Made by a program: the position numbers and the translations under genes
NCBI GenBank assembly: GCA_963722075.1
Contig: CAVRJM010000001.1
Coordinates: forward strand, 224,001 to 288,000
Length of the DNA: 64,000 nucleotides
Direction: 5' to 3'
Source: Candidatus Babeliales bacterium
GTDB lineage: Bacteria; Babelota; Babeliae; Babelales; JANWKD01
Part shown: in pieces, positions 1 to 63,069 of the stretch
Position numbering within the stretch: position 1 is the stretch's first letter
Layout of the letters: each line of letters starts with the position of its first letter
The notes under the pieces: generated by a model
What the model saw: the letters and a program-made list of their open reading frames with translations, nothing else
The model's database searches: none
Told to the model about the DNA's origin: nothing

Positions 1-151
1 GGCGACTAGGCAATTGAAATGAATTAACCGGTGATTGTGCTAGTAATCGAGCAATAGGGGTTTGATTAGGTGAGGGATTAGGATCCTCCATTGCCCTAAA
101 GGTAGTGGGTACTAAACTGATAATAAGTAAAAAAAAGCTCCATTTATTCAT
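1..151 (-). CDS. 5' end of a secreted protein paralogous to 216..1283 (runs off the window)
   Basis: Manual translation from ATG at 151: MNKWSFFLLIISLVPTTFRAMEDPNPSPNQ..., nearly identical to the N-terminus of the next gene; open to position 1. Confidence 0.85.
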   Translation of the reverse strand, partial: MNKWSFFLLIISLVPTTFRAMEDPNPSPNQTPIARLLAQSPVNSFQLPSR

Positions 152-225
152 AAAGATATTCCTTTTTAAATAAAATCTATTATATACTATAATTTTATAT
201 TAAATTTTCAATTTGTCAATAAAAT
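74..225. repeat. Copy 1 of a ~150 bp direct repeat (promoter, start, signal peptide, AMEDPNP); copy 2 at 1209..1354
   Basis: GGGATTAGGATCCTCCATTGCCCTAAAGGTAGT...CATTTATTCATAA...AAATTTTCAATTTGTCAATAAAAT present at both places. Confidence 0.9.
192..219 (-). promoter_or_regulatory. Putative sigma70 promoter TTGACA-N16-TAAAAT
   Basis: Consensus -35 and near-consensus -10; identical arrangement at 1321..1348 and 63107..63134. Confidence 0.55.
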
Positions 226-1283
226 AGGCGGTAATCTTTGGCCACCTCTTGTGGCACTGGGTTGAGAATCCGTAATAGTTGCAATAATGATTCGCGCTGC
301 TGACTCTCCTCTTCTTCTTCTTGGTAGCTAACTGGTCGATCTGCAAATATTGATTGAGGAGGTGTTGGTGCTATTGTATTTCCATTATTATTGGCAATGG
401 GGTCTGGAAATTCTAAATATTTTTCCCAATTATTGTTTTCATCGTCTAGGAGATTAGTCTCTTGTGTTGTTGTATTATTTTGCAATTGGCTATATCCGGT
501 ATAAGTTTTGCAATGTTTTTTGAGGCCAGATTTAGTTTTGAAGGATTTTTTGCAATTTTCATGGGTACATTGGTGAGGTTTGCCATTATGTTCTTCTTTA
601 ATATGAATAGAATATTTTATTGTAGATATAAAAATTTTATTGCAACCAATTGCAGGGCATTTGTAAGGATATGTTTGTGGAATTGGTGTTGATTTTCTTT
701 TACGAGAATTGCTTATCATGAGAGTCGTATTATTTTGGGGTTGAGTAAGATTGTTTGATAAATTCATAAGGGCACTATCAATCGTATCATGATAAAGCGC
801 TTTATGTATTGCTAAAATATGTCGATGTTTTGGTTTTGCGGGGCAGTAGCCTATCGGACATATCAGTTGCTGTGGGGTCGCCATATGCCTATGGTCTTGC
901 GAGCAATGCTTGGAATAAGCATTAAGATTTGTAAATTTTTTATTACAATATATGCATATAATTGATAGTATAATATGGATCGTTAAATGGGACTGTAAAG
1001 TAGAATTGAGCATTGTATCACTAGAGAAATTTTTCTTGCAGAGGTTACAGGTAGCGGTATTATTAGAGCGGGTTGCATGACTTAGTTTCATATGCGCTAA
1101 TAATTCATGAAATTTCATTGGAGGTTTTATACAGTCGGAATCGGGGCACTTAAATGAGTTAACCCATTGCGCTGCTGGTTGGGTAACAGATGTTTGATTA
1201 GAAGTTGGGGGATTAGGATCCTCCATTGCCCTAAAGGTAGTAGGCAGTAAGCTAATCAGTAGAAAAAGACTCCATTTATTCAT
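216..1283 (-). CDS. Secreted multi-C2H2 zinc-finger protein (candidate host-nuclear effector)
   Basis: Likely start ATG 1283; Sec-type signal; about six CxxC/Cx4C...HxxxH units including YKCPAIGCNKIF...HIKEEH-NGKP-HQCTHENCKKSF; basic RKRK; acidic C-terminus. Confidence 0.85.
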   Translation of the reverse strand: MNKWSLFLLISLLPTTFRAMEDPNPPTSNQTSVTQPAAQWVNSFKCPDSDCIKPPMKFHELLAHMKLSHATRSNNTATCNLCKKNFSSDTMLNSTLQSHLTIHIILSIICIYCNKKFTNLNAYSKHCSQDHRHMATPQQLICPIGYCPAKPKHRHILAIHKALYHDTIDSALMNLSNNLTQPQNNTTLMISNSRKRKSTPIPQTYPYKCPAIGCNKIFISTIKYSIHIKEEHNGKPHQCTHENCKKSFKTKSGLKKHCKTYTGYSQLQNNTTTQETNLLDDENNNWEKYLEFPDPIANNNGNTIAPTPPQSIFADRPVSYQEEEEESQQRESLLQLLRILNPVPQEVAKDYRLFY

Positions 1284-1354
1284 AAGAATATTCCTTAAAC
1301 AAAATCTATTATATATTATAATTTTAAGGTAAATTTTCAATTTGTCAATAAAAT
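1209..1354. repeat. Copy 2 of the promoter plus signal-peptide direct repeat
   Basis: Matches 74..225. Confidence 0.9.
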
Positions 1355-1449
1355 TACTCCAAAAGATTTAAGAATTTTGTTATCTATTGAGTACCTAAGT
1401 AGAGCCTGGGTTAGTAAGATATTTTGATCTTAATTTGTATTGCAATGTA

Positions 1450-2085
1450 TTAATAAGAATCAAAAAGCGCGGAGGGATTAGATGTGTTGATTAATGCCAA
1501 TAATCCTAAGAGTTCTTGTTGATGCTGTTTATAACTTTCCGATTGAGTTTCATATGTAGTTGGCGCAGTTGGCAAATTGTACTGATCATATTGTTTAATA
1601 GCTGCTGATAATGCAGCTATTTTATTTTTTATTTCTTGAGTATAACTGGTTGTTTCTTTTTCAATTTCTTTTGCCGTGGTGATTGGTAGTACATTGTTGT
1701 TAGTATCATCGTTGTCAAAAGTTAAGTGTATAAAATTCATAGTAGGTGTTTCATCAGTAAAATTATACGTTGTAGGACGACTTCGGGGTATGTTAACACA
1801 ATCTCGGGATTTATGTACGTTTAAGCTATGTTGATTAAAGAAGCTTTCCGAGCAGTCGGGGCAGCGATGATCTAACGTGCGATGATCTATTAAATGCCTT
1901 TTTAGATCTGAGTGATGAAAAAAACGCTTCGAGCAACTTACATACTTACATTGGTACTGTTTATGGTGAAAATCGTTAGCTGAACGCTTTCTTTTTTGAG
2001 GATCTTTTTGGTTTTCCATACTTATTAGAGAAAAATATGGAAAGCTCATACTAATAATAAATGCAAAAAATCTTCGTTTGCTCAT
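1450..2085 (-). CDS. Secreted C2H2 zinc-finger protein (two fingers)
   Basis: ATG 2085 preceded by AAAGGAG; signal peptide; QKRKRS; YQCKYVSCSKRFFHHSDLKRHLIDH and CPDCSESFFNQHSLNVHKSRDC. Confidence 0.85.
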   Translation of the reverse strand: MSKRRFFAFIISMSFPYFSLISMENQKDPQKRKRSANDFHHKQYQCKYVSCSKRFFHHSDLKRHLIDHRTLDHRCPDCSESFFNQHSLNVHKSRDCVNIPRSRPTTYNFTDETPTMNFIHLTFDNDDTNNNVLPITTAKEIEKETTSYTQEIKNKIAALSAAIKQYDQYNLPTAPTTYETQSESYKQHQQELLGLLALINTSNPSALFDSY

Positions 2086-12483: not shown

Positions 12484-12981
12484 ATGAAAAGAATCAAATT
12501 GTGTATAGCAGGATTATGCATACTGTTAGCTCACTTAAGCAGCTCTGCTGAACAAGACGGTGCATGTAAAGATGGCGTATGTCCCGTTATACTGGATAAA
12601 CCGCAACCAGCAATACCAAAAGAAAAGCAAGCAGAACACAGTTCTGTTCTTGAGCTAACCAATCAAAATTTTGATTCAATTATCAAAAATTCTACAAAAC
12701 CAGTCATCGTCGATTTTTATGCGGTGTGGTGTGGGCCCTGTAAAATGATGAAGCCCCTCTTTGCTGAGCTTGCTGTAACAGAAAAAGAATATATTTTTGC
12801 AGCAATTGAAGGTGATAAACATCCTACCATAAGTGCACAATGCAAAGTTAATGCGTTTCCTTCTTTTGTTGTTTTTAAAAATGGTGTTCAATGGGGTAAA
12901 ATTGAAGGTGGAAAACCTAAAGAAGATCTTTTGAATGCGATAAAAAAAATTGTCGCAACTGCACAGCCACAAAAAAAGTAA
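12484..12981 (+). CDS. Exported thioredoxin-family protein
   Basis: Signal peptide, extra CKDGVC motif, VDFYAVWCGPC active site. Confidence 0.9.
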   Translation: MKRIKLCIAGLCILLAHLSSSAEQDGACKDGVCPVILDKPQPAIPKEKQAEHSSVLELTNQNFDSIIKNSTKPVIVDFYAVWCGPCKMMKPLFAELAVTEKEYIFAAIEGDKHPTISAQCKVNAFPSFVVFKNGVQWGKIEGGKPKEDLLNAIKKIVATAQPQKK

Positions 12982-16488: not shown

Positions 16489-16508
16489 AATAATCTCTAA
16501 TTAAATGT

Positions 16509-16856: not shown

Positions 16857-16875
16857 AATATCTCTAATTATAAAG

Positions 16876-18024: not shown

Positions 18025-18048
18025 TATAGCTCCAAAAAGCTTTCATTT

Positions 18049-18545
18049 TTATTTCCAAAAATATGTTCTAATGTTGCATCCCGCTACGAACGCGGATAAA
18101 ATAAAAGAGCCAATAGCAATTCTGCCATACCATTTGCGTGAATCATGAAGGGGATCATCCCTTCTATTTATTGTAGCTAGTCGTTGTGCCATCTTTGTCC
18201 AATTATTATTAATATCTTGTTGGTTTGCGCTCCACGCTTGATCACGCTCATGACTATTGTTTTTTATTGCTTGATTATCCTTCATAAAGCGATAACCGCA
18301 ATAGGTTCCGATAAATGCTAAACCAATTGAGAGCAGTATGCCCAAAGAAGGGCTACCTAATTTTGTAAATAGGTCGCCAAAAGCACTTATTGATGATGAA
18401 GAAGATGGCATATTTTGGTTATCAGCATAATGCACTATCAGGTCTCCGATTTCGTAAGTGCCATTCAGATGTAAATGATCAAAAATAAAATCTTTTTGCA
18501 TAGCATAAGTAAAAGATAGTGGAAGAGAAAATAATAATATAATAA
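18049..18545 (-). pseudogene. Exported two-TM protein whose signal peptide is interrupted by the IS; 5' end at 19693..19711
   Basis: Removing the IS and one TAATAA copy restores in-frame MKKILIILLFSLPLSFTYA-MQKDFIF...; contains AFIGTYCGYRF. Confidence 0.88.
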
Positions 18546-19692
18546 CAGGACTTACGCATTGGTCGAAAGTTCTGATTGGGACTTGAAATAAATAAAAAAG
18601 GGTGCTTCAATTTTGTGAATTAAACAACAAAAGCAAAAAAGAAGGACACCCGAAATGAGAATAACAAATACAAATGAAGAATCAAGCACACCAAAATATG
18701 TAATGGGTTTATTAAAAACAACGGCACGAAAAGTTTGCACAAATATTTCTGAAACACTGGGAATAATGCATGATGTGCTCAATAGGGAAGTTGAAAAAGC
18801 AGCCCAGAATGCAGCAGAAATAACAAGCTCATTACAAAATGTTGCTCTAGAAAGTCTTAGCAATTGCGAAAGATATTTGATAATCGATGATACTCCCGTA
18901 AATAAGCAATATGCTAACGATATTGAAGGATTAGAAATTGTTTATGATAGTAGTGAGAAAAGATCAGCTTTGGGATTACGGTCTGTAATTGGCATGATCA
19001 CTGATACCAGAGTAAGAATACCGATTGATGCGGAGATTATGATAAGCAAAGTATTTGGAGAAACCAATTACAAGACAAAAAGTGAAATTGCTTACATTAT
19101 TATAGAGCGTGTTCTAGGATCAATTCGGTTTAATTGGTTAATTGCAGATGCCCATTATGCGACTGAATACCTTCTGCCAAAGCTTTTTAACAGGTCAATA
19201 AAATTTCTGATGAAAATTCCCAGAAATCGCGTTGTTACTATTAACAATAAAACAGGACAATTGCAAAAAATTTTACGTTTGAAAAAAAATAACAGATTTG
19301 CTTGTGGATACGGCACTATTTTTGGTCTTTCCTGTTATTTCTATGTGTTAAAAATTGATAAGGAAAAAATTATGTATCTTATCAGTAGCCATCAGCTCGG
19401 CAAAGAGAAGCTAATTTCTACATATAAGATTCGTTGGCAAATTGAATGCTTCAATAGAACTGCCAAACAACTTCTTGGATTCAGCGAATGCCAAATGCGT
19501 TCTTTTAACATGCAGCGTGCGCATTTACTTTTCGTGTTATGGGCTTATGCTTTAGCCGACATAAGGCGGGTAAAAGATAATTTCGACAATACTGAACAAG
19601 CCGTCAGATCCTTTCGGGTCGCAAAACCCCCTACACCATCTAGTTTATTTTATGCTTTTGAAGAGAACTCTTATGCTCTTGCGTAAGTCCTG
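18546..19692 (+). mobile_element. IS701-like insertion sequence with 13-bp terminal inverted repeats
   Basis: CAGGACTTACGCA (18546..18558) and TGCGTAAGTCCTG (19680..19692); TAATAA duplicated at 18540..18545 and 19693..19698. Confidence 0.92.
18655..19686 (+). CDS. DDE transposase (IS701/IS4-like)
   Basis: YLIIDDT, WLIADAHY, YKIRWQIECFNRTAKQLLG (YREK-type motif). Confidence 0.93.
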   Translation: MRITNTNEESSTPKYVMGLLKTTARKVCTNISETLGIMHDVLNREVEKAAQNAAEITSSLQNVALESLSNCERYLIIDDTPVNKQYANDIEGLEIVYDSSEKRSALGLRSVIGMITDTRVRIPIDAEIMISKVFGETNYKTKSEIAYIIIERVLGSIRFNWLIADAHYATEYLLPKLFNRSIKFLMKIPRNRVVTINNKTGQLQKILRLKKNNRFACGYGTIFGLSCYFYVLKIDKEKIMYLISSHQLGKEKLISTYKIRWQIECFNRTAKQLLGFSECQMRSFNMQRAHLLFVLWAYALADIRRVKDNFDNTEQAVRSFRVAKPPTPSSLFYAFEENSYALA

Positions 19693-19725
19693 TAATAAGT
19701 ATTTTTTTCATAATAATTTTCATTT

Positions 19726-21094: not shown

Positions 21095-23356
21095 TCATTG
21101 AAAGAGCGCTATAATTTCTGAATCACCGGTTTCAAGGGCAATATCCAATGCAGATTTTTGATCTGTATTATAACTTTTGCTTTGTGCATTGAGTGATAAT
21201 AATTGCTGTATAGCATCCTTATTTCTTTGTTGAACGGCATAATGTAACAAAGAATTGCTTTGTACAAGGGCAGTATGTATTTTGACATTACTATACTGAT
21301 TCTTATTACTAAAATAGTTAAAGCTTGTTTCGGGTAATAGCAGTTTTATTAAATCTCGTTGCTCCTGAACGCTTAAGCTACCTGGTGAAGGATTGGTGGT
21401 AGGTACTAAGGCTTTAAAAACAAAACTATCTATTTGGTCGATACTGCCATACAGCATATGATCAGTTATTAAGCGGGCCATATATTTCATCAGGGCAGGA
21501 TATTTCTCGATAATCGATAACCCCTTAATAAATTGTTCAAAGAGTATAGGATCAGTTAATAACACTTCTTTATTTTTTTGTAATAGTGCAATAAAAGCTT
21601 CCGGTATTTGATTCAAAAGAGCATGCTCAATAAGATTATATTTAAGTATGAGCTGACTTATACGAATACTCGTATGATGATTCGTGCGTTCAAATTCTTT
21701 CATTATATTCATAATAACTGCAATAAGATCAGGGTTTTCTGGGCTACTTTCACACAAATTATCCAAAGCAGTAAGTAACTGCGGCATACTTTCTAAGGAC
21801 GAAGAAAGATAATGATGAATGAGATGTGAAGTTGGAATTTTACGATGAGGATATAACTCATTGCCATCGTTATTTTTAATCAGTGGACGTAACACTGCTA
21901 ATTTATGCGCCTTTTGGGGTTCCTGATGATTGTTTTTTAAAAAAGGAATAACAATTTTTTTGCTGAGCATGGTACCAGTTAATCCATCGGTTTGCGGGCT
22001 CACAAAATAGCAATGATAATCTTTTTCCAAATAAGCCTCCATTATTTCCACTTTTTGAGTGTTATAAGTATGAAAGATAATTTTAAGCACTATGTTACTT
22101 GGGTACGTGGTATCTGCGGTGATTTCAATGCGTTGTTTTTCATTTGAAAGTGCATGAGCTAGTTCTTCAAGTGATTGAGCGTTGGTATTGAGTAGATAGT
22201 TACTGGCGTTAATGAAATTGAAAATTGTTGGTAATAGCTCATGATCCTTACTTTTATATTCCAAGAAAGGATGATCGCACAATAACTGAAACCATGCGTT
22301 TCCCGTTTGGTAATTATTTATGCTTTTAAAATCATTATAGGTTGTATAAAAGTTAATAAATTCCGGGCGCGGGCATAAAGTGGGGGATAAAAGAGTAAGA
22401 TCAAAATGATGCGTATCTTTAAGATAGCGATTAAAAAATTCGCGCAATAATCCTTCCATACAATCCGGTTGGGCGGGGTTATTATTATAAGAATGATGTT
22501 GTAAGTCAACGCTTGGCATTACATATGAACGTAAGGCAAAAACAGCAGTTTTTTCAAAATTATGATTAAGAATTTCAGAAAGTGGCATGCGAGATAACCG
22601 GGATTCATAGTGTTCAAAATCTTTTTGATTATAATGGTCGGCAGCGAATGTGGTTTGGTTAAATGACGGAATTATAGCCTCGGGTATTTGTTGTTGCAAA
22701 CGCGTATAGTAGGGAATTAAATCTTTTTTATCAGTAGCTTTTTTAACCATATGCCCTAATAAAATGGTTTGTGTTGTATATGGCCTATAAGGCGCTGATG
22801 GATTTTGTGTTTGAGATTCTTGATGCGATTGATTAATGAGATCAAGCGTATTATATGCTTTTGCGGCGGTAATAACTTGATTACATGCTTTTTTATGTTG
22901 TGCGCGCCATTGATTTGCCAAGTTAGTTTTGGTAACAGGATCTGTTAATTTATTTTGTTCTAGATTAGTAAGAATATTTGCAGTTAATTCAGGGTTTAGT
23001 GAAGCCCCTAATAATGATTTATTATGGGTAGGCCGAAAACGTGTATGTAATTTATTAAAAAGCGCCTGTGCTAATTTAACGGTAGCATGCTTTTCATTGC
23101 CAAATTTATATAATCGTTCAATCCAATTACTTTCAGCCAATATAGCACCATTTAACGGAGAAAGATGCTGGTAGCCTGGCATAAATGAGCTATGGGTGCC
23201 CTTAAAGTAATCAGGGTGCAATGCACGTGATTGACGCCAAAAGGGGGTAAATAGTGAACTGAGACGAGTAAAAATTGTTGGTTGTGGGGATTTGTGCATA
23301 CTAAAGAGGTTGATATTCCATAGTAATAAAACCCCGTATAAGAGGGTTAATCTCAT
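21095..23356 (-). CDS. Large secreted protein with C-terminal ankyrin repeats
   Basis: Signal ending LFS|M; SLLHYAVQQRNKDAIQQLL and SALDIALETGDSEIIALF ankyrin motifs; GGAGG RBS. Confidence 0.8.
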   Translation of the reverse strand: MRLTLLYGVLLLWNINLFSMHKSPQPTIFTRLSSLFTPFWRQSRALHPDYFKGTHSSFMPGYQHLSPLNGAILAESNWIERLYKFGNEKHATVKLAQALFNKLHTRFRPTHNKSLLGASLNPELTANILTNLEQNKLTDPVTKTNLANQWRAQHKKACNQVITAAKAYNTLDLINQSHQESQTQNPSAPYRPYTTQTILLGHMVKKATDKKDLIPYYTRLQQQIPEAIIPSFNQTTFAADHYNQKDFEHYESRLSRMPLSEILNHNFEKTAVFALRSYVMPSVDLQHHSYNNNPAQPDCMEGLLREFFNRYLKDTHHFDLTLLSPTLCPRPEFINFYTTYNDFKSINNYQTGNAWFQLLCDHPFLEYKSKDHELLPTIFNFINASNYLLNTNAQSLEELAHALSNEKQRIEITADTTYPSNIVLKIIFHTYNTQKVEIMEAYLEKDYHCYFVSPQTDGLTGTMLSKKIVIPFLKNNHQEPQKAHKLAVLRPLIKNNDGNELYPHRKIPTSHLIHHYLSSSLESMPQLLTALDNLCESSPENPDLIAVIMNIMKEFERTNHHTSIRISQLILKYNLIEHALLNQIPEAFIALLQKNKEVLLTDPILFEQFIKGLSIIEKYPALMKYMARLITDHMLYGSIDQIDSFVFKALVPTTNPSPGSLSVQEQRDLIKLLLPETSFNYFSNKNQYSNVKIHTALVQSNSLLHYAVQQRNKDAIQQLLSLNAQSKSYNTDQKSALDIALETGDSEIIALFQ

Positions 23357-23447: not shown

Positions 23448-25220
23448 TTATTGATTAAATGATTTCAATTTGTCAATTAATTGTTCGATTGGCATGTCAT
23501 AAAGCTCTGCTCCCAACGCAGTTTCTATCTGTTCTGTTGCTGGGTTTACAATTAAAAAAGTAGGAAATCCGGTAATGGAAAATTTCTCTTTTAATTCTTT
23601 ATAGGGGCTATTGTAGGCATTGGTGCCATCAACTTTTAAGAGAATATACTCTTGTAACACTTCTATAACGGCAGGTTTAGTAAAGGTGGTGTTATTAATT
23701 GCTAAACAAACCGGGCAGAATCGTGCCCAAAAATCGATGAACAACTTTTTACCACTATCACGTGCTTGTTCAAGTGCTGACTGGTAATCGGTATGCCATA
23801 GATGGTGGTGAACATCATATGAATCTTTTTGAGGTAGAACCACGCTTTTATACGCTTGAAAAAAGAGTAAAAACGAAATAATAGCCAGTAATGAACCAAA
23901 TGCGCTCATACAGGTACTTAAAAATCCGGTTTTTATTTGTTGGGAATGATACAGATAAAAAATGCCGATGGCTAATACAAATAACGCAACAAACCAAAGT
24001 AAAATAGTGTGTGGTACAATAAAATTAATATAATAAAAACAGATGGCAAAAATTAAAAATCCAAAAAGACGTTTAACTTCTATCATCCATAATCCTGCTT
24101 TAGGAAGCACTTGCAGTGAACTTGAGCATACTCCTACTATTAAAAGTGGCATGCTGATTCCTATGCCAAATGAAAATAATAGTAAAAACCCCATTATTTT
24201 ATTTCCTAACGTGGCTACAATACTTAATAAAAGAGCAAGGCCTGGTGATACGCACGGAGAAGCAATAGTACCACTGGCTGCGCCAAACATAAAGCTTGAA
24301 AGCAATGGGCCTCCTTTAATACGACTGGGCCCAATCTTAATAATGTTGGGAACATGAAGATCATAAAGGCCAATCATTGATAGCGCTAAATAGGTTAAGA
24401 TGGTAACTAAACCAATAATAAAAAATGGTTTCATTAACAATTGTCCACATAAAGGGCCTACACAGCCGGCAAGTAATCCAAAACAAGCAAAGGTTGTAGC
24501 CATACCCAGGGTGTAAAATAACGATAATAAAAAATTAAATAATAATGATTTACTTCCTTGTGTTTGTAAGATGCCAATGGTAATGGGAATCATTGGATAA
24601 ATACAGGGCGTTAGACTTAATAAAACGCCCAATAAAAAAACTAATAATATTCGTATAAAGGGCGATTGAACTGATTTTATTAATCCAGAAATATAGGTTG
24701 AAATCGAAAAAGGTTCTTCATACGAATGAGTAGAAACATTTTTTTCTTCATCAATTGTTTGTACTTCACTAGTATGATCGGAGGAAGGAGGAGGTTCGAT
24801 TTCTGGAGTAATTTTTGTAGGAAATAGTTCAATAATTGTTTCTTGTGGACCGGTTTTATTACTGACTAAGGCAATATGCGCAAAAGCGGAAGGTTGGTAC
24901 GAATCATTTTTAATGGCTGTAAAAGAAAAAGTTACATTTTGATCAAATACTTTTTTGGTTTTTTTGTACGTAGGATCATACTGATTATGTGCATCGTAGG
25001 ATGTTTTATATGGCGTTATAGTCACGGCTGGGTTATCACTGGTTACAGTAATAAGATCTTTGTAAATCCATTCTTGAGGTTCTAATGAAACATGCATTTC
25101 GATTTCTTCAATAGTAGGATTAACAGTGTTGGAGGAAAAGGTTGCCGAAAAACCATTTATATTTATGAAGGTAATAAAAAGTGATGTGATGAGAAATGAT
25201 AATATGTTTATTTTTTTCAT
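23448..25220 (-). CDS. dsbD: DsbD-like thiol:disulfide interchange protein
   Basis: SLTPCIYPMIP, ASPCVSP, LPKAGLWM TM domain plus C-terminal thioredoxin DFWARFCPVC. Confidence 0.9.
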   Translation of the reverse strand: MKKINILSFLITSLFITFININGFSATFSSNTVNPTIEEIEMHVSLEPQEWIYKDLITVTSDNPAVTITPYKTSYDAHNQYDPTYKKTKKVFDQNVTFSFTAIKNDSYQPSAFAHIALVSNKTGPQETIIELFPTKITPEIEPPPSSDHTSEVQTIDEEKNVSTHSYEEPFSISTYISGLIKSVQSPFIRILLVFLLGVLLSLTPCIYPMIPITIGILQTQGSKSLLFNFLLSLFYTLGMATTFACFGLLAGCVGPLCGQLLMKPFFIIGLVTILTYLALSMIGLYDLHVPNIIKIGPSRIKGGPLLSSFMFGAASGTIASPCVSPGLALLLSIVATLGNKIMGFLLLFSFGIGISMPLLIVGVCSSSLQVLPKAGLWMIEVKRLFGFLIFAICFYYINFIVPHTILLWFVALFVLAIGIFYLYHSQQIKTGFLSTCMSAFGSLLAIISFLLFFQAYKSVVLPQKDSYDVHHHLWHTDYQSALEQARDSGKKLFIDFWARFCPVCLAINNTTFTKPAVIEVLQEYILLKVDGTNAYNSPYKELKEKFSITGFPTFLIVNPATEQIETALGAELYDMPIEQLIDKLKSFNQ

Positions 25221-36098: not shown

Positions 36099-37454
36099 GT
36101 GAAACTGTTATATATAAGTTTATTATCATTAGCATTCTTACCATGTGCTGCAATGAACCAATCTTCTTCTCATGATGGTATTTTCTATTTAGTTGAAGCA
36201 TCGGATGGCCAATTGGTAGAACTACCTGAATCAGTAATAAGAAGATTAAAAGTACTCAATGATTGTTTTAAAGATACTGCCGAAGATTATCTACACAATG
36301 CGTATGCTGGTATTAAAGAAAAAGTTACGGGTAAAGCTGATAAAAATATTTTGTTTTTTAGTTTAAAAGATCGAAGCATTCCCCAAGATATTCCCTTAGA
36401 TAAAGATTGGGACATACCCGTAGATAGCACATTATTGCAAGATTTGAGCGATTGTTTAAGAGGCGTTAAAAAGGTTAAACAATTGGATCCAAAAAAACTT
36501 AATGAGCTTTTTGAAGCAGCTGATTGTTTGGGAGCGCCACGAGCATTCTTAAGAAAATTAACCTTATATGCGCGTAAGTGCTTACCAAAAGATGAGCAGC
36601 ATCGATTAATTTGCTGTGGCCATTATTTAAATTCGCTTAATACCTTTATTGATAATGGGTATTTTACCAAAGACAATGAACAAAATTACCTATCAATACA
36701 AAAAGATCAGAATAATAATGATATTATTACATTACAATTATCGGGTTTAGAGCTTGATAATTTACAGGGTATTGATAAAGTTGCCCGCATTGTTGGCACT
36801 GGAGTTCATAAAATTTGTTTAGAAACAAATAAATTAGTAAAAATTAATTTAAGCAAATTTTGGGAATTATTTCCTCATTTGAATGAAATTAGTTTGGCGC
36901 ATAATAAAATTACAAAAGCCTGTTTATCCATTCCCAATCAATCTTATTCAATGCCAGTTGGTGCGATAATAAATTTATCCGATAATCGACTAAAAAAAAT
37001 TAAGGGAAAATTATCTGAAGCAGCAATTTTAGATATTCAAAAGAATACGATAAGTCCCGAGCTTAAAAATTGTTTAGAATTAATTCAAGAGCCCACATTT
37101 TATCAAAATAATCATTATTTTATTAAAGCATTAAAGAGTAATTATTTTTTAAGTAATATGAAAAAAGGTACAGAAATAGGCCTGATGGGCGTAGGTATGC
37201 TTCCGCTGAGTGTTTCTTTGATCTTATATTATAAAAAAGTTCAAAAATTACCGTCAGAAACTATGAATTTAGAATATGCACAAATTTTTTTGAAACAATT
37301 AAAAGATGTCGTTACAGACCCATTGACATATAAAACAGCTCTTAATTATTTTAGTGGGATGTGTTTATGGAATGTAAGTGTTAATCTTATTTGTGATAGG
37401 GACTTTTATAAGCAGCATTATGGTTTTATTTTACCACAAATCATTACTGATTAA
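36099..37454 (+). CDS. Secreted Skp1/BTB-like plus leucine-rich-repeat protein
   Basis: GTG with GGAGG RBS; LVEASDGQLVELP and LNELFEAADCLGA (Skp1/BTB-like); LRRs ICLETNKL, ISLAHNKI, INLSDNRL, LDIQKNTI; C-terminal hydrophobic segment. Confidence 0.78.
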   Translation: MKLLYISLLSLAFLPCAAMNQSSSHDGIFYLVEASDGQLVELPESVIRRLKVLNDCFKDTAEDYLHNAYAGIKEKVTGKADKNILFFSLKDRSIPQDIPLDKDWDIPVDSTLLQDLSDCLRGVKKVKQLDPKKLNELFEAADCLGAPRAFLRKLTLYARKCLPKDEQHRLICCGHYLNSLNTFIDNGYFTKDNEQNYLSIQKDQNNNDIITLQLSGLELDNLQGIDKVARIVGTGVHKICLETNKLVKINLSKFWELFPHLNEISLAHNKITKACLSIPNQSYSMPVGAIINLSDNRLKKIKGKLSEAAILDIQKNTISPELKNCLELIQEPTFYQNNHYFIKALKSNYFLSNMKKGTEIGLMGVGMLPLSVSLILYYKKVQKLPSETMNLEYAQIFLKQLKDVVTDPLTYKTALNYFSGMCLWNVSVNLICDRDFYKQHYGFILPQIITD

Positions 37455-41016: not shown

Positions 41017-41734
41017 ATTTTGTTTGATTATTTTTTAGTTCCAATAATCTCTTATAATTTGTTACTAGTTTTCTAACGTTATCTATTTGTTTTTCTAGCT
41101 CTTCAAATTTTTTCCAGATAGTATTAGTTAGTTCATTTCTCGTACTATCTTTATCTTCTAAGTCTTCTATTCGTTCAGCTTGATCATTATTGATTTTTTC
41201 ATATTTAATTAAATAATCTTCTAAAGCATTTGTCTTTTCAATAAGCATTGCAATCTGGCTTGGACGAGTTGCTTTTTGTGGTTTTTCTATATCGCTTTTA
41301 TCGATGCCTATTATTAATTCTATATTAGTAACGCGCCGTGTTAATTGCTTTAATAAATTTTGCGTTTCACTCATTTGCGAGAAGGATGCTCGTGGTGATT
41401 CTGTTAGCTTATTAGGTTGCGATGAAGCAATGTGATCTAATAAGCTTTTATAGTGCTGTCCATTATTATAATACGCATAATAGATGCCCCATCCAAAAGC
41501 GCATAAAATAGGATATTTTATTAAACTGGGAATGGTATGCCAGCAATTCTTTACTAATTCATAGGCATTTAATGTTTCAGTTTTATTAAAATAAGAATAG
41601 ATTCCAAGTCCCATAATACCACCACTTAATAATGAATAAGGATGCGATATGGTATTTTTTAATTTTTGAAAAGGCTTAGTGGAACCTATATGCAGTAATA
41701 AGCACAGTGAGAAAATGATTTGTTTATTGATCAT
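41015..41734 (-). CDS. Exported protein with two hydrophobic segments and a C-terminal coiled coil
   Basis: Signal, GIMGLGIYSYF, ILCAFGWGIYYAY, heptad-rich C-terminus. Confidence 0.72.
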   Translation of the reverse strand: MINKQIIFSLCLLLHIGSTKPFQKLKNTISHPYSLLSGGIMGLGIYSYFNKTETLNAYELVKNCWHTIPSLIKYPILCAFGWGIYYAYYNNGQHYKSLLDHIASSQPNKLTESPRASFSQMSETQNLLKQLTRRVTNIELIIGIDKSDIEKPQKATRPSQIAMLIEKTNALEDYLIKYEKINNDQAERIEDLEDKDSTRNELTNTIWKKFEELEKQIDNVRKLVTNYKRLLELKNNQTK

Positions 41735-42339
41735 TGTTGTGATGATTCGCTGTTCATAATAAAGGAAAGACTCATTCTATCCTGATTTTGATGCTCAGGA
41801 TAGTTTTGTTTATATAGTTGATAATATGTATAAAGTGATTGCTTGATATCAGGAGTTAATGGTGGTTGAGATGGCGTTTTTATTATAGTTAATATGGTAT
41901 TAAAAAGTGAACGAACGGCAAATGGATCCTGAGCATCTAAATGCAGGCTGATTAATTTTAGATAGGTATTAATCTGTAAATTATAAAAATGCGTTTGGTA
42001 TATTTCTCTATAGTGTGCTATTTCATGTGGAGTGGAAAATTCATACGGTATTACTTTGAAAGTAAGTAATCGGTTCAAGTGTTCAATTTCTTCTAATAAC
42101 AAATCCTTAATTCCAGTGAGTTTATTATTGGTTGGATGCAAATTATAACTATGACAGATTTGTAGATATTCCCTTTCAAAATCTCCTATTTTTTGCATAT
42201 GAGGCTTAGCCTGCTTTTTATAATACACTCTTCCGCTATTAGAACCAAATTTATCTTCTTGGTTATCCTCTTGATCAGGATTCATAGCTTGCATCGATAT
42301 CATTGCCGTAATGATTAAAAAAAAAGTAGCATATTTCAT
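41731..42339 (-). CDS. Hypothetical secreted protein
   Basis: Signal MQA|MNP; C-terminal RMSLSFIMN. Confidence 0.75.
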   Translation of the reverse strand: MKYATFFLIITAMISMQAMNPDQEDNQEDKFGSNSGRVYYKKQAKPHMQKIGDFEREYLQICHSYNLHPTNNKLTGIKDLLLEEIEHLNRLLTFKVIPYEFSTPHEIAHYREIYQTHFYNLQINTYLKLISLHLDAQDPFAVRSLFNTILTIIKTPSQPPLTPDIKQSLYTYYQLYKQNYPEHQNQDRMSLSFIMNSESSQQ

Positions 42340-45559: not shown

Positions 45560-45820
45560 ATGAAAAAGTTATTTGCGATGACATTTTTAGCGACGTTTTC
45601 TTTGAGTGCTATGAATAAAAGTGAGGAAAAACAAGTATTAAATGTTGCAGTAGTTGCTGCTCAGAGTAATATTCGACCGGCACAGCATTCATTTCTTCCC
45701 GTTCGGCCACCATTTCAAAAAGCACCTCTTGATGGTGTTAATCCGCGTGAAGATCAATCACATTTGTTTTTATCTAAAAAAACGAAGCAAGAGAATAATC
45801 AAAAAAACACTGATTCGTAA
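45560..45820 (+). CDS. Small secreted protein
   Basis: MKK signal LSA|MNK; AAGGG RBS. Confidence 0.65.
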   Translation: MKKLFAMTFLATFSLSAMNKSEEKQVLNVAVVAAQSNIRPAQHSFLPVRPPFQKAPLDGVNPREDQSHLFLSKKTKQENNQKNTDS

Positions 45821-49057: not shown

Positions 49058-49624
49058 TTAATGTTTTTGTGAATCAAGTAGCTTCAGTTGGTTAAAGATT
49101 GTGTAGCTTAGATGAGCGCCAGATGCACAGCACCCAGCTAATCCGAGGCTCGTAGTGAGGATGCCGTCTATAACATCCATTTTACTAAATTCTTTTTGAC
49201 AAAATTTTTCTATGCCATAACAAAGAGCAATTGCTCCAGTAAAAATACCGAGGACTGACCTACAGAGTTCAGGTGTTATGAATGGGCGATGCCGTTGGTA
49301 GGAGAGTCCTTTAGATGAAAGACTAATATCAAATCCCGATTGATCGTCATCTGAACGCAGTGATACGTTATATGACCGTTGAGGATTGCTTGAAGAAGGT
49401 GCGTCATATGAATAGTGGCGGCTGCTGGATTGAGCAGAGCTATTTGCAGGCCACAAGCCAAAGGTAATAACGTTAAGAAATCTATCAAGTTCTGCATCGT
49501 CTTGCTCTGCTTGTTCGCGTAGATTACGAGCAGATTCATAAAAAGTTTGCGATCTTTTATCTTTTCTCATGCCGTAGCAATTGATGATGCCCATGCAAAA
49601 TAATAAGAACACTATTTTTTTCAT
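49058..49624 (-). CDS. Secreted protein with two C-terminal hydrophobic segments
   Basis: Signal CYG|MRK; Ser-rich middle; two TM-like segments. Confidence 0.72.
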   Translation of the reverse strand: MKKIVFLLFCMGIINCYGMRKDKRSQTFYESARNLREQAEQDDAELDRFLNVITFGLWPANSSAQSSSRHYSYDAPSSSNPQRSYNVSLRSDDDQSGFDISLSSKGLSYQRHRPFITPELCRSVLGIFTGAIALCYGIEKFCQKEFSKMDVIDGILTTSLGLAGCCASGAHLSYTIFNQLKLLDSQKH

Positions 49625-53508: not shown

Positions 53509-54291
53509 TTATTTTAAGGCGTTATTAAGATTTTCAAGTCTATTTTTTAAGTTTTTTAGGCTAAATTCTACAGAACGTTCTCCAAGGGAGGTGGCCCATA
53601 CTTCTTCTTCCTCCTCTTCTTCTTCAGGTGTTGTAATGGTACCCCACATAGTAGGCAATTCTTCTTCACTTTCAGATTCTTCCGCGGAAATCCATCCCTC
53701 TTCTTCCGATTCTGCTCCTTCTTGCGCGGGTTGTAAGCCAATAGTTTGTTCAATCATATGGCGCGTTTGATTATCAGTAAAGTAAGGAACAAAATGATGT
53801 CTAAGTTTCATATCGCCAGTTCTGCTTTTATAAATTGCACTATGTCGTCCACTGATTTTCATTATATCTATAAAATGCTTCGCATTAACCCATCTAAAGT
53901 CTTTTTTTTCTTTATCCCGTTGATCAGGCCCTTTTAAAATTTGTTGGGGGGTTTTATAGGGAACTTCTGCTAAAAATAATGAATAATATTTTTTTGGGCC
54001 AGGATTAGTGATCCCATCTTTTGGTTGTAAATCCTTTTCGGTTAGTTTGTAAGTACCTCGAGATTCTTCCCGCAGCTCACGCAAGGCAGTTTGCTGAGCA
54101 GTTTCATTTCTCTTACCGCCACCACCAAAATCAGCCCAGTCATCTTCTAGTGTTCCAAAAGCTTCTTGTCCTAGTAGAAAATATACGTTCCCTTTGTGTT
54201 TAGAATATGGAAGTACGCCCGCATTTTTTGCTTCTAGTGAAAAACTAATGATGCATGATAAAAAAATAATGATTAATGCTTTTTTATTCAT
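53509..54291 (-). CDS. Secreted NUDIX hydrolase with acidic tail
   Basis: Signal; AGVLPY...FLLG...WADFGGGGKRNETAQQTALRELREES Nudix box; Glu-rich C-terminus. Confidence 0.85.
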   Translation of the reverse strand: MNKKALIIIFLSCIISFSLEAKNAGVLPYSKHKGNVYFLLGQEAFGTLEDDWADFGGGGKRNETAQQTALRELREESRGTYKLTEKDLQPKDGITNPGPKKYYSLFLAEVPYKTPQQILKGPDQRDKEKKDFRWVNAKHFIDIMKISGRHSAIYKSRTGDMKLRHHFVPYFTDNQTRHMIEQTIGLQPAQEGAESEEEGWISAEESESEEELPTMWGTITTPEEEEEEEEVWATSLGERSVEFSLKNLKNRLENLNNALK

Positions 54292-57226: not shown

Positions 57227-57628
57227 ATGATTTATGGTAAGAAAATGCTATTTTTAATTTTTATTTTAACATTGAACATGCAAATATATCCAATGATTCC
57301 GGATACTAACGTGACTATAGTGAATAAAAGCAAAGATCCGGTAACGGTGTACTTACATAGTGTGCCCAGGACATGTTATCCTGCTAAAAGAACTATTCGG
57401 TTTGATTTACCCGGGGCAACCATGTACTCTTTAGGTACAGTAACTAAGCCAGTAGGAACTACCTGCACCTATTCTAATGCTGATTTTTATCATAATGAAA
57501 ATCATTGGGGTAGTTCTGACATTCAACCGCGAGCCTATGTTCCGAGTGCTGATGGTGCTGCCAAATTGTGGATAAATAACTCAGAGGGTGGCAAATGGGG
57601 GATAGGAATAACTAAATTGAATCCATAA
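57227..57628 (+). CDS. Small secreted beta-rich protein (paralog of 56706..57101)
   Basis: GAGGAG RBS; signal; CTYSNADFY, LWIN, WGIGI. Confidence 0.75.
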   Translation: MIYGKKMLFLIFILTLNMQIYPMIPDTNVTIVNKSKDPVTVYLHSVPRTCYPAKRTIRFDLPGATMYSLGTVTKPVGTTCTYSNADFYHNENHWGSSDIQPRAYVPSADGAAKLWINNSEGGKWGIGITKLNP

Positions 57629-60064: not shown

Positions 60065-60096
60065 GTCATTTCCCTCGGAAATGCCTGGCAGGCCAG
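60062..60096. repeat. tRNA-3'-linked palindrome (copy 3) plus CAGGCCAG
   Basis: CCAGTCATTTCCCTCGGAAATGCCTGG-CAGGCCAG. Confidence 0.85.
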
Positions 60097-60193
60097 TTAA
60101 AAGATAATGGCGATGATTGGAAATTGATACACTGAAGCGATACATTCTGCCAGAGCTTGAAAAGCTATGGAGGAATAAAAAAGGAGAGAGTCG

Positions 60194-61498: not shown

Positions 61499-62430
61499 AT
61501 AAAAATACTATCGCACCATTAATAATAATAGGGTCAGGACCAGCGGGGTTAACAGCGGCTATTTATGCAGCGCGTGCTAATTTAAATCCCATTATTGTTG
61601 AAGGAAAAGATCCAGGTGGCCAATTGATGGGAACTACTTATGTGGAAAATTGGCCTGGGAATCGATCAATTTTAGGCCCGCAACTGATGATGAATATGAG
61701 AGATCATGCCAAAGATTTAGGAACCCAGATTATTTCTGGTATGGTTACTAAAGTAGATTTTTCCCAAAAGCCGTTTACGCTAACGCTTTCCGATGATACC
61801 GTTATGAAAAGCCATTGCGTTATTATTGCCACCGGTGCTACCGCTAAACGATTAGGATGCCCGGGTGAAGATACCTATTGGGGCAAAGGAGTTACTACCT
61901 GTGCTGTTTGCGATGGCGCTTTTTACAAAGATCAGCCCGTAATAATTGTCGGTGGTGGCGATACGGCAATGGAAGATGCTTCTTTTATGACCAATTTTAC
62001 CGATAAAATTACGCTTGTTCATATTCTAGGTACATTAACCGCCTCGGCAGCTATGCAAGAGCGGATAATCAATAATCCTAAAATAAAGATTATATATAAT
62101 AGCACCGTTGTTGAAATGCTGGGGAATAATAAGCATGTGACGGGAGCAATTATTGAAAATCAGCAAACAAAAAAACGTGAGCAGTTTGAAACGAGTGCTG
62201 TTTTTGTTGCCGTTGGCTTAAACCCAAATACACAGCTCTATAAAGGGCAGCTTGAATTAGAAAAGAATGGTTATTTAAAGCTTAGTAATCATACGCATAC
62301 GTCAATACCGGGTGTTTTTGGCGCTGGCGATGTTGCTGATTATCGGTATCGACAAGCAATTACTTCTGCCGGAGCAGGGTGTATGGCTGCATTAGATGCA
62401 GAAAAATATATTAAAGAACAGGTACGCTGA
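61495..62430 (+). CDS. trxB: Thioredoxin reductase
   Basis: GSGPAG, GGQL, CAVCDG, GGGDTA, YRQAITSAG. Confidence 0.97.
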   Translation: MNKNTIAPLIIIGSGPAGLTAAIYAARANLNPIIVEGKDPGGQLMGTTYVENWPGNRSILGPQLMMNMRDHAKDLGTQIISGMVTKVDFSQKPFTLTLSDDTVMKSHCVIIATGATAKRLGCPGEDTYWGKGVTTCAVCDGAFYKDQPVIIVGGGDTAMEDASFMTNFTDKITLVHILGTLTASAAMQERIINNPKIKIIYNSTVVEMLGNNKHVTGAIIENQQTKKREQFETSAVFVAVGLNPNTQLYKGQLELEKNGYLKLSNHTHTSIPGVFGAGDVADYRYRQAITSAGAGCMAALDAEKYIKEQVR

Positions 62431-62481
62431 TTATTTTTTATATAAGTAGTTCAAATAATTGCTCAAGCTAGCCAATATCTC

Positions 62482-63069
62482 TTAATTGTTGCTCTTTTTT
62501 TCTTCTAAATGTTGAAGGATTTCTTCTAGGGGTATATTCTTATTATTGAGTGACGTATCATTTTCTTTAGTATTTTCTTCAGTTTCATATAAATAGTAGG
62601 GAAAACCAATTATTTGGTGGTTTCTTTTGCAATAGGGCTTCACCAATTCTATGTTTTCTTGCGTAAAGAGTTCGGCGACTCGCTCTTTTATACGCAACTC
62701 TTGATATGCTATCATCACTTCATACAAAAGCTGGTCAGTAGGTATAGATTGTTTACAATTTTTATATTCTTCTTTTATATATTCGGTGATAGATTTTCCT
62801 CTACCATTTGGAGAATGAGTGGGTAAAGCCCAGTCGGTAATAAGAGTAAAAGCATTTTGGGTTACGGGTAAGCGCAGATAGAGAACTGAAGTAGGATCAT
62901 ATTCTTCAGGAGGAGGTTCTTTAATGTACAGTGCGCTCTTTAATTTATTGAAAGGTAGCGGGTGGGTGTATTCAGCGACAACTTCATCCTCAATATAAAC
63001 ACGATACATACCCTGATTAACTGTTGGGAAAAAGATTATAAAAAATAAAAATAATAAGTATTTATTCAT
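62482..63069 (-). CDS. Secreted protein, possibly Skp1/BTB-like
   Basis: Signal NQG|MY; LRLPVTQNAFTLITDW and LLYEVMIAYQELRI recall Skp1/BTB helices; TTGACA-N16-TAAAAT upstream. Confidence 0.6.
   Translation of the reverse strand: MNKYLLFLFFIIFFPTVNQGMYRVYIEDEVVAEYTHPLPFNKLKSALYIKEPPPEEYDPTSVLYLRLPVTQNAFTLITDWALPTHSPNGRGKSITEYIKEEYKNCKQSIPTDQLLYEVMIAYQELRIKERVAELFTQENIELVKPYCKRNHQIIGFPYYLYETEENTKENDTSLNNKNIPLEEILQHLEEKKSNN

Follow-up and report, generated by a model that had tools for sequence, protein, structure and literature searches.

A methionine directly behind the predicted signal peptidase site marks repeat-type and orphan exported proteins of a Babeliales bacterium

Babeliales (TM6) are intracellular parasites of protists. 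In the Babeliales genome studied here (G000), a methionine directly follows the predicted signal peptidase I (SPase I) site of many exported proteins, and this pattern is genuine, genome-wide and order-wide. Judged from predicted sites, it is present on about a third of the leader-bearing proteins, nearly all of them repeat-type or unnamed ones, and no such rule was found described in the literature searched. The results support the view that this Met class has a mature N-terminus under selection, and the Met-E/Q/N/D end is likely to protect or sort host-bound proteins. The original prediction, which read the motif as a possible export or maturation code from 15 genes of the window (the whole 64,000-nt stretch of DNA analysed), was borne out in part.

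Results

Met at the predicted +1 position

Signal-peptide-like leaders were found in 634 of the 1413 genes of the genome. Cleavage sites were predicted with our own heuristic and an EM model blind to Met, not with SignalP; the Met-blind set comprised 598 leaders, and the Met class 217 proteins. By the heuristic, the leaders have the anatomy of Sec/SPase I substrates, with K/R in the n-region, a hydrophobic core, a small residue at -1 and a small or aliphatic one at -3. At the 176 sites with Met at +1, position -1 was A/G/S in 154 and position -3 was L/I/S/A/C/V/T in 156. Arg never occurred at -3 (0/176), i.e., a PEXEL-type RxL is absent, and the test for lipoprotein (SPase II) signals was negative, as +1 was Met and not Cys and -2 was mostly large (Y, N, F, K, H, Q).

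Met occupied the blind +1 position in 176 of the 598 leaders, compared to 4-24 at each flanking position and a bulk Met frequency of 1.8%, in line with the enrichment anticipated from the window; Gln was found there in 24. An untrained rule using only the upstream positions (-3, -1) still placed Met at +1 in 129/598. Further, a Met fell within residues 15-28 of 304/634 leader-bearing genes vs. 173/779 other genes (P 3e-24).

The residue behind the Met was strongly biased as well. In the Met class (n = 217), +2 was E/Q/N/D in 171 proteins (E98, Q32, D18, N23), small in 11, hydrophobic in 15 and K/R/H in 20, while the corresponding values for the other leaders (n = 382) were 121, 109, 114 and 38. 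The NatB-like preference noticed in the window therefore holds genome-wide, the 171/217 Met-D/E/N/Q ends being NatB-type N-termini on predicted sites, and the statement that +2 is never small has to be corrected to 11/217. When the class was reduced to one protein for each of its 148 clusters, E/Q/N/D remained at +2 in 112. With an anchor that ignored both +1 and +2, E/Q/N/D came next at 35/42 Met vs. 32/122 non-Met sites (P 8e-11), which indicates that the +2 preference is tied to Met and is no general taste of the peptidase. A Kozak-type G at +4 was ruled out on logical grounds: the codons of Ala, Gly and Val share this first G, and yet these residues almost never occur at +2. Pro at +4 was also discarded as a code element, as it was equally common in Met (21/148) and non-Met (19/202) leaders.

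Genes of the window

All 15 positions listed in the original prediction are start codons of the genes concerned (10 on the minus strand, 5 on the plus strand), and a K/R-plus-hydrophobic leader lies in frame with the quoted junction in 14 of them (Table 1). A Shine-Dalgarno (SD)-like purine run precedes 13 of the 15 starts, those at 19711 and 63069 being the exceptions. Thirteen genes entered the Met-blind model, whose site gave +1 Met in 12; the gene at 45560 fails the hydrophobicity filter and that at 19711 is split. The reconstruction proposed for the latter proved correct, as the downstream half of the IS-split gene reads TYA|MQ, and the count of E/N/Q at +2 (10/15) was likewise confirmed. 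The BTB/LRR label given to the protein at 36099 was not upheld, Pfam yielding neither a BTB nor an LRR match. A paralogue adjoining the gene at 57227 (56706-57101) has no Met. For the gene at 63069, a gene caller was seen to start at the internal Met, so that the leader was lost.

Table 1. Leader-bearing genes of the window and associated features. Junctions are given around the predicted cleavage site.
Feature	Coordinates	Strand	Met codon	Junction	Remarks
C2H2 zinc-finger gene, 5' end	1..151	-	91-89 (+1)	FRA|ME	783 aa, runs off window; leader 151-92
C2H2 zinc-finger protein	216..1283	-	1226 (+1)	FRA|ME	355 aa
C2H2 zinc-finger protein	1450..2085	-	2019 (+1)	LIS|ME	211 aa
Thioredoxin with leader	12484..12981	+			contrast; no +1 Met
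Small orphan gene	18049..19711	-	18501	TYA|MQ (downstream half)	leader split by insertion sequence
Insertion sequence	18546..19692	+			DDE transposase 18655-19686; 13-bp terminal inverted repeats; 6-bp target duplication
Protein with C-terminal ankyrin repeats	21095..23356	-	23299 (+1)	LFS|MH	753 aa
DsbD with leader	23448..25220	-			contrast; no +1 Met
Orphan	26166..27119	-	27062 (+1)	IHA|MN	317 aa
TolB-like (PD40) protein with leader	31732..33048	+			contrast; no +1 Met
Ankyrin protein	33828..34331	+	33888	SLA|ME	167 aa; blind site two residues earlier
Ankyrin protein	34521..34994	+	34578 (+1)	SLA|MK	157 aa
Ankyrin protein	35386..35892	+	35443 (+1)	CFA|ME	168 aa
Protein, no Pfam match	36099..37454	+	36153 (+1)	CAA|MN	451 aa; GTG start
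Orphan	41731..42339	-	42285 (+1)	MQA|MN	202 aa
Orphan	45560..45820	+	45611	LSA|MN	86 aa; leader under hydrophobicity filter
Orphan	49058..49624	-	49570 (+1)	CYG|MR	188 aa
NUDIX enzyme with leader	53509..54291	-			contrast; no +1 Met
Orphan	57227..57628	+	57293 (+1)	IYP|MI	133 aa
Orphan	62482..63069	-	63009 (+1)	NQG|MY	195 aa

Cargo of the Met class

The Met class includes WD40, ankyrin, C2H2, DnaJ and orphan proteins. Genome-wide, 35 ANK/WD40/C2H2/RING/USP/SET proteins carried the Met and 15 did not, compared to 2 vs. 37 for envelope proteins (n = 39) and 0 vs. 51 for enzymes. The expected split between repeat/orphan and envelope proteins, seen in the window for the thioredoxin, DsbD and TolB-like proteins, was thus found in the whole genome (35/50 vs. 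2/39). The repeat proteins collapse into few BLAST clusters, and the eukaryote-like class should therefore not be taken as 50 independent cases. The claim that all ankyrin proteins have the Met held in the window but not genome-wide, where it was present in 17 of the 28 scanned; the other 11 (one a missed Met case) lack it, as do one WD40 protein and the RING, USP and SET proteins, and several of these have a predicted degron residue at +1. Since clear eukaryote-like secreted proteins lack it, the Met is no universal export code. R/K/H, F/W/Y/L/I or D/E/N/Q/C was exposed at 168 of 254 confident non-Met sites, which means that many exported proteins ignore the rule.

The stretch behind the site (residues +3 to +20) was more hydrophilic in the Met class than in non-Met orphans (mean KD -0.79 vs. 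-0.32; P 1e-7), and the Met share dropped from 51/111 to 15/111 from the most to the least hydrophilic quartile. Envelope proteins were almost as hydrophilic behind the cleavage site (P 0.16).

Relatives and other phyla

The pattern recurs across 121 Babelota genomes, but unevenly: counts differ more than tenfold between genomes, and it is weak or absent in several families, the low Met shares of f4, f5, f6, f7, f11 and f12 resting on 11-44 leaders per genome together with pattern counts. Homologues retain the Met while their leaders diverge; for the gene at 36099, it was kept in 7/7 fetched homologues with a whole leader. In the non-Met enzyme family DUF2608, Met was found in 0/94 leader-bearing homologues, and 20/39 leader-bearing ankyrin ORFs of relatives were without it.

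In a search not aimed at Holosporales, Amoebophilus or phytoplasmas, the pattern did not turn up in the Pseudomonadota and Chlamydiota covered. Five Met leaders labelled Pseudomonadota by NCBI (locus L245) lie on a contig with Babeliales-type genes, and G121 (L218, L233), labelled likewise, probably belongs with such contigs. Pattern matches in the five small Pseudomonadota genomes that had the most of them were chance matches only. Met stood at +1 in 0/55 leaders of named Chlamydiota loci and in 4/51 of Bdellovibrionota, one of these being Met-Glu; the E. coli control comprised only 7 leaders, too few to inform. A query of the ESM Atlas with a 50-residue N-terminus found nothing.

Discussion

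What stands at the sequence level is the pattern, its enrichment, its restriction to one cargo class and its retention in diverged homologues. We tentatively favour, at somewhat under even odds, the explanation that Met-E/Q/N/D is a host-stable, NatB-like mature N-terminus on host-bound proteins, produced by the predicted SPase I cleavage. Leader-bearing proteins would be exported by Sec and cut by SPase I just before the Met, and the mature proteins would reach the protist host through either vesicles or the type II system. In the host cytosol, an SPase-made R/K/H, F/W/Y/L/I or D/E/N/Q end would be an Arg/N-degron, a Met-hydrophobic end would itself be a degron and Met-small would be trimmed by MetAP, so that a Met-E/Q/N/D end would need no further trimming and would match NatB. 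The degron and NatB rules indeed match the +2 exclusions of the Met class (PMC11735805, PMC7494357). The Met should be most important for proteins with an exposed, flexible mature N-terminus, which would explain why folded enzymes starting straight in their domain lack it. However, NatB is bound to the ribosome, and UBR1/UBR4 may recognise NatB-type ends that lack the acetyl group (PMC11735805), so that a free Met-Glu need not be safe. A ClpS-type bacterial N-end rule is unlikely as the reader, since no ClpS, Fmt or deformylase was found in the genome.

It is also conceivable, if unlikely, that Met-E/Q/N/D is a sorting tag read by an export step after Sec (a GspD secretin, a chaperone or a motor), as with the PEXEL end, whose +2 preference is the same (bioRxiv 10.1101/2023.07.12.548774). 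The sharp split between cargo classes, the hydrophilic stretch that follows the Met and the export inventory would fit such a tag: a type II secretion operon (GspC/GspD) with two secretins (GspD) is present, while no OEP match, i.e., no TolC route, was found in the genome. On the other hand, the USP, RING and SET proteins and 10 ankyrin proteins, presumably host-reaching too, lack the Met, and 11 of the 64 multi-member paralogue clusters mix Met and non-Met proteins. Type II systems, moreover, are generally considered to read folded surfaces. The pattern also varies widely, although two gspD copies are present in all seven TM6 genomes of PMC4776705. A leader-bearing AAA+ protein was dismissed as export motor, as its predicted transmembrane segment would place the ATPase in the cytoplasm. 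Of the export code originally proposed, universality did not survive, and the second step need not be of a novel kind, a type II operon being present.

That the pattern reflects history and not function, either through grafting of leaders onto genes whose original start Met was retained or through copying of one leader-plus-Met cassette, is quite improbable. In its favour, orphans and tandem paralogues abound in the class, genomes differ over tenfold in their counts, as would be expected from expansions, and Met-class genes adjoin above their share (41 Met-Met adjacencies between different clusters). Native starts, however, look different at +2, with E/Q/N/D in 59/267 vs. 171/217 in the Met class and small residues in 92/267 vs. 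11/217, a comparison made with native and not with eukaryotic donor starts. The Met is spread over 148 clusters and retained as leaders diverge, and the median best identity of leader DNA between clusters (0.57) was the same for Met and non-Met leaders. One copied cassette was rejected, and the grafting suggested originally was not supported. A preference of one SPase I paralogue for Met at P1' is very improbable: the genome has two SPase I genes and the lineage motif is unusual (Tyr at -2, Pro tolerated at -1), but the -3/-2/-1 profile is common to Met and non-Met leaders, G001 and G079 show a clear Met peak with one SPase match each, and such a taste would not keep Met off enzymes and envelope proteins. 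Hardly credible, and rejected, is the internal ATG as the true start, with the leader untranslated or both starts in use, which the original prediction had named as a refutation. Nothing was found to speak for it. An SD-like motif precedes the first start in 132/217 genes and the internal ATG in 2/217, at the 3.4% background of internal ATGs, and the upstream segment is always in frame with leader anatomy.

A maturation by two enzymes resembling the Q-rule, in which cleavage by SPase I makes the Met accessible for acetylation, outside the cytoplasm, by a membrane-anchored NAT-like enzyme (G000:C1:929670-930239), seems rather unlikely; it is compatible with a host-stable end and names its maker. 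A near-full-length orthologue (E 1e-11 or better) was found in 100/100 genomes of ten families, and in all 30 fetched orthologues the N-terminus carries a hydrophobic anchor, whose upstream side is richer in K/R than its downstream side in 24, equally rich in 5 and poorer in 1. Among PDB entries, the family profile matched protein N-terminal acetyltransferases best (Naa30, 2.5e-14; archaeal Ard1; RimI), and the confidently modelled structure (pLDDT 92) has a predicted fold matching RimI, NatC and Ard1. In the columns of NAA20 Asn116/Tyr123, N157 and Y164 are invariant among the orthologues. Further, the Met pattern exceeded a His control in carriers (598 vs. 218), compared to 62 vs. 63 in 21 non-carriers. 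Against this, family f13 has no orthologue but does have a genuine Met class (pattern 27 vs. 5; 12/101 leaders), f4, f5 and f6 carry the enzyme with little Met excess over the control (5 vs. 4, 23 vs. 18 and 36 vs. 27), and the column of NAA20 His73, which reads Asp/Glu, holds His in the studied genome but is variable over the 30 orthologues, with His outside the five commonest residues. Presence of the enzyme may reflect a single gain or loss, its topology is a prediction, it would need acetyl-CoA supplied outside the cytoplasm, and it may be an ordinary RimI or have small-molecule substrates. The Asn/Tyr pair and the NAT-like fold are common to many GNATs, and an ESM Atlas query with the enzyme returned generic GNAT clusters only. 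We also doubt the full bacterial counterpart of PEXEL maturation, in which SPase would expose Met-E/Q/N/D, a periplasm-facing anchored acetyltransferase would use acetyl-CoA from the host to cap this end, and in its capped form the end would license export of hundreds of effectors and mimic host NatB products.

In a phylum that parasitises protists, has no export machinery beyond Sec and a type II system, and exports about 45% of its proteome, mostly orphans, a two-residue mark sets 217 repeat-type or orphan proteins apart from enzymes and envelope proteins, and may serve across the order as a filter for candidate host-directed proteins. It provides a clear-cut example, open to testing, of how a bacterium may tailor its mature N-termini to the rules of eukaryotes. 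If the anchored acetyltransferase is the partner, it would be an enzyme that acetylates protein N-termini outside the cytoplasm of a bacterium. It is also a warning for annotation, as gene callers can begin at the internal Met and drop the leader.

Comparison with Known Systems

Phytoplasma SVM leaders, many of which end in Ala-Met, likewise belong to the Sec type and are carried by host-directed proteins in a bacterium that lives inside cells. SVM is, however, one homologous cassette (PF12113), which the Babeliales Met leaders are not, and the family was discarded with 0 matches in the genome at E up to 10.

Among Dependentiae, leaders are reported on 44% of the proteins and 78% of the ankyrins of C. 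destructans (PMC6561590) and on 79/126 ankyrins of B. massiliensis, which has a type II system only (PMC4378268). These secretomes resemble ours in the share of leader-bearing genes, the cargo and the GspD pair; the word 'methionine' is absent from both main texts, which do not describe the +1 rule.

The NatB and N-degron rules (PMC11735805, PMC7494357) favour the same Met-Asp/Glu/Asn/Gln ends and avoid Met-small and Met-hydrophobic ones, whereas here the Met is internal and would be exposed by cleavage, not an initiator, and NatB acts mainly on the ribosome. In Plasmodium, plasmepsin V cuts the RxL of PEXEL and leaves an acetylated xE/Q/D (bioRxiv 10.1101/2023.07.12.548774). The two resemble each other in that proteolysis, in Babeliales by prediction, gives the host-directed proteins of a parasite living inside cells a second residue of E/Q/D; in Babeliales, however, there is no RxL or second protease, the site is a predicted SPase I site, position 1 is a fixed Met, and any PTEX-like translocon would be hypothetical.

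The closest known system is the Q-rule of Bacteroidetes, where Gln at +1 after SPase I cleavage is cyclised by an inner-membrane glutaminyl cyclase (PMC5837995, PMC10653852). Both have a lineage-specific +1 residue of SPase I substrates thought to stabilise the N-terminus; as a membrane-anchored modifying enzyme, the NAT-like GNAT is a candidate here. The Babeliales pattern differs in using Met instead of Gln, in its two-residue code and in covering about 30% of leaders compared to about 70% in the Q-rule; and while the Q-rule is compartment-independent, the Met belongs to one cargo class (2/39 envelope, 0/51 enzymes, 35/50 eukaryote-like proteins).

Methionine at the predicted mature end

The genome carrying the window (G000, 1.47 Mb, 99% complete; the window is G000:C1:224001-288000) yielded 1413 genes with our own gene caller, 634 of which begin with a leader, i.e., a signal-peptide-like N-terminus, in a test blind to Met. 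This share is near the 44% reported in the accessible part of the Chromulinavorax destructans study (PMC6561590). False positives, such as Rossmann-fold starts and membrane proteins (48 of the 572 leader-bearing proteins scanned), dilute the Met signal rather than create it. Two TLC ATP/ADP carriers are encoded in the window; those of their homologues that have a name come under Babeliales or Dependentiae, apart from one under Gammaproteobacteria.

All 15 junctions at which the original prediction placed a Met directly after the signal peptidase I (SPase I) site were present in the sequence, one of them inside a gene interrupted by an insertion sequence. Genome-wide, residues 15-28 contained Met in 304/634 leader-bearing proteins vs. 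173/779 other genes. The proposed enrichment at +1, the first residue after the site, was confirmed when cleavage was modelled with Met hidden and +1 given no score: of the 598 proteins having no more than one additional transmembrane segment, 176 had Met at +1, while flanking positions had 4-24 each and bulk Met was 1.8%. The untrained starting rule gave 152, and upstream-only versions gave 129 (untrained) and 167 (trained). From these sites, we infer that SPase I cleaves directly before Met. Proteins with a Met site at most 4 log units from the best site were termed Met-class, a definition that still overlooks a few obvious cases (217 proteins, 148 BLAST clusters). Throughout the genome, leaders with and without Met share a preference for Leu at -3 and Tyr at -2 of their predicted sites, and both tolerate Pro at -1.

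The second residue

The code spans two residues. At +2, the 217 Met-class proteins have E (98), Q (32), N (23), D (18) or K (15) most often, and the NatB-like character claimed for this position held genome-wide, with E/Q/N/D in 171/217, compared to 121/382 other leaders and 59/267 native (ordinary gene) starts. Small residues occurred in 11, 109 and 92 of these sets, respectively, and hydrophobic ones in 15, 114 and 61. With a fixed upstream anchor, Met was found in 42/164 sites, followed by E/Q/N/D in 35/42 cases vs. 32/122 for non-Met. According to the available portions of PMC11735805 and PMC7494357, Met-D/E/N/Q is the NatB consensus, Met-hydrophobic a possible degron, and Met before small residues is removed by MetAP. 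Beyond +2, no fixed residue was seen in the Met-class, and the following 18 residues were more hydrophilic; Pro at +4 was rejected as a code element, being no commoner with Met than without.

Cargo classes

A Pfam scan (E 1e-4) covered 572 of the 634 leader-bearing proteins (202 Met-class), with sequences cut to 600-650 residues and hits sorted by hand. Met/non-Met counts were 17/11 for ankyrin, 12/1 for WD40, 6/0 for C2H2, 5/1 for DnaJ, 0/3 for RING/USP/SET, 2/37 for envelope proteins (both Met cases doubtful), 0/51 for other enzymes and 154/213 for proteins without a Pfam match. Counted by cluster, envelope proteins gave 2/30 and enzymes 0/44, and the repeat families shrank to few clusters. 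The Met-class robustly shuns enzymes and envelope proteins. The cargo split originally claimed stands for the envelope proteins, nearly all without Met, but not for the eukaryote-like proteins as a whole, since 11/28 ankyrin and 3/3 RING/USP/SET proteins also lack it. Many proteins probably bound for the host lack +1 Met (leader-bearing proteins without it are tabulated below). Exclusion of enzymes is not absolute, because three GNAT enzymes of relatives (L325 and L326 of genome G081; L329 of genome G077) have a leader and Met-Gln; both genomes belong to families without the anchored GNAT described below.

Coordinates of individual features
Feature	Location	Strand	Observation
Insertion sequence, DDE transposase	window 18546-19692		within leader-coding part of small exported gene
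Row of similar small membrane proteins	window 16084-20244		includes the split gene
FtsH	window 37758-40406	+	882 aa; two tandem AAA modules ahead of protease domain (translation)
AAA protein	G000:C1:473154-476093 = L068:15066-18002	+	979 aa; leader, long N-region, one predicted transmembrane segment near 239-258; FtsH/p97-like AAA module; M41-like tail reads HQAGH
Anchored GNAT	G000:C1:929670-930239 = L263:1501-2067	-	189 residues; N-terminal anchor; single-copy
USP deubiquitinase	L128:3061-4452		leader, no +1 Met; adjoins type II operon
RING protein	L127:10915-11874		leader, no +1 Met
SET protein	L132:5963-6430		leader, no +1 Met
MavL-like protein	L089:4925-6409		leader, no +1 Met
Lysophospholipase	L059:10510-12459		leader, no +1 Met
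DOT1-like protein	L066:18422-19084		leader, no +1 Met

Range across Babelota and beyond

The DNA pattern MKK...[AG]-M-[EQ], for which 17/22 matches in G000 were true, was found 660 times in 121 phylum genomes vs. 281 for a control with a His codon in place of Met, and at least 8 matches occurred in 25 genomes vs. 1. Families f1, f2, f3, f8, f9 and f13 showed a strong excess and f5 and f6 a slight one, whereas f4, f7, f10, f11, f12, f14 and f17 had none. Blind +1 Met shares in sampled DNA agree with this profile (f2 8/43, f3 7/37, f9 7/28, f6 5/44, f8 3/31, f13 9/101, f5 1/31, f11 1/27, f7 0/11, f12 0/23). A leader was present on 39 of the 57 ankyrin ORFs from loci of relatives, and 19/39 were Met-class, some in f11 and f14. 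In one f11 genome (G041, locus L046), several leader-bearing ankyrin proteins have Ala at +1 in place of Met, and Ala was the commonest +1 residue there (7/27).

The phyla of a Francisellaceae-labelled genome (401 genomes) and a Parachlamydiaceae-labelled genome (61 genomes) gave top counts, for the Met pattern alone, of 8 in 4.5 Mb and 10 in 3 Mb; the pattern requires an MKK start and is biased to AT-rich genomes, and endosymbiotic Alphaproteobacteria are perhaps thinly covered. Babeliales-type genes and the Met pattern are both present on contigs L245 and L218/L233 (G121), whose title 'uncultured Pseudomonadota' is probably wrong.

Export machinery and an anchored acetyltransferase

G000 encodes two SPase I genes, GspC together with two GspD secretins in one operon (all matches under NCBIfam cut-offs), two type II/IV ATPases, two Omp85, one MetAP-like peptidase and a second M24; TolC, deformylase, ClpS and Fmt had no match in this genome. 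In f7, f10-f13, f16 and f17, SPase I ORFs are mostly longer (about 400 aa). As far as the accessible text goes, type II is reported as the sole secretion system of Babela massiliensis (PMC4378268), and two gspD copies in 7/7 TM6 genomes (PMC4776705). Peptide deformylase was found in 2/121 phylum genomes, and translation in this lineage probably starts with unformylated Met. In the 979-aa AAA protein, whose N-part matches a 770-960-aa ORF in 29/61 genomes, HQAGH occupies the place of the FtsH HExxH motif; the protein is possibly a protease-dead FtsH-type motor.

An anchored modifying enzyme was sought by analogy with the Q-rule, whose partner is a glutaminyl cyclase (PMC5837995 and PMC10653852, available portions). 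Orthologues of the anchored GNAT occur in 100/100 genomes of ten families (100/121 of the phylum sample) and in 0/21 genomes of f7, f10-f13, f16 and f17. The anchor is retained in 30/30 orthologues with a mostly N-in charge bias, and the domain is predicted to face outwards. In 21/30 loci, the gene upstream carries a motif that we ascribe to TruA. As a single sequence, the protein matched human NAA20 (E 1e-6), the family profile gave Naa30, Ard1 and RimI as top matches, and a structure model had a RimI/NAT-like fold. The enzyme is a lead: the NatB-specificity His is not conserved, the Met-class occurs in f13 in the absence of an orthologue, and Met excess is small in f4-f6, where the enzyme is present. 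Leader-bearing enzymes needing ATP, SAM or acetyl-CoA are common in G000, which makes cofactor supply beyond the cytoplasm less odd. The anchored GNAT merits study even if unrelated to the Met-class.

Interpretation and comparison with known systems

The suggestion that the internal Met is the true start is hardly credible, as an SD-like motif precedes the first start in 132/217 Met-class genes and the internal ATG in 2/217. Grafting of leaders onto genes that kept their start Met found no support either, with no DNA cassette common to leaders of different clusters and E/Q/N/D rarer at native starts than in the Met-class. With residues 1-180 of the product of gene 36099 (a 451-aa window protein without Pfam match) as query, 15 hits were obtained; the query itself, two fragmentary sequences and four very long matches caused by repeats were set aside, and the other eight were fetched. 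Junction Met was kept in 7/7 homologues with a whole leader, followed by E, N or Y, and the eighth, incomplete at the leader, reads HG|MEE; for a non-Met DUF2608 enzyme, which served as the control, +1 Met occurred in 0/94 leader-bearing homologues (120 in all). Retention points to selection rather than history, and history rather than function is an improbable account of the Met end. A mere SPase preference for Met is more improbable still.

Beyond the observed pattern, enrichment, cargo bias, retention and range, Met-class proteins would be delivered to the host, where the exposed mature N-terminus may play a role. That Met-E/Q/N/D forms a host-stable, NatB-like end is our tentative preference, at somewhat under an even chance. 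A PEXEL-like sorting tag at the mature end (bioRxiv 10.1101/2023.07.12.548774, available portion) is rather unlikely, and acetylation by the bacterium as the purpose of the Met end, for which the anchored GNAT is the lead, is unlikely, if slightly less so than history. The host-stable end, sorting tag and bacterial acetylation are mutually compatible.

No published description of a +1 Met rule was found in the literature searched, although supplements may still list cleavage sites; the word 'methionine' is absent from the main texts, as far as accessible, of PMC6561590, PMC4378268, PMC5837995, PMC8026896 and PMC11495043. Judging from the accessible portions of the sources, the Q-rule (PMC5837995, PMC10653852) and PEXEL maturation (bioRxiv 10.1101/2023.07.12.548774) work similarly, but the Met pattern lacks some defining features of each.
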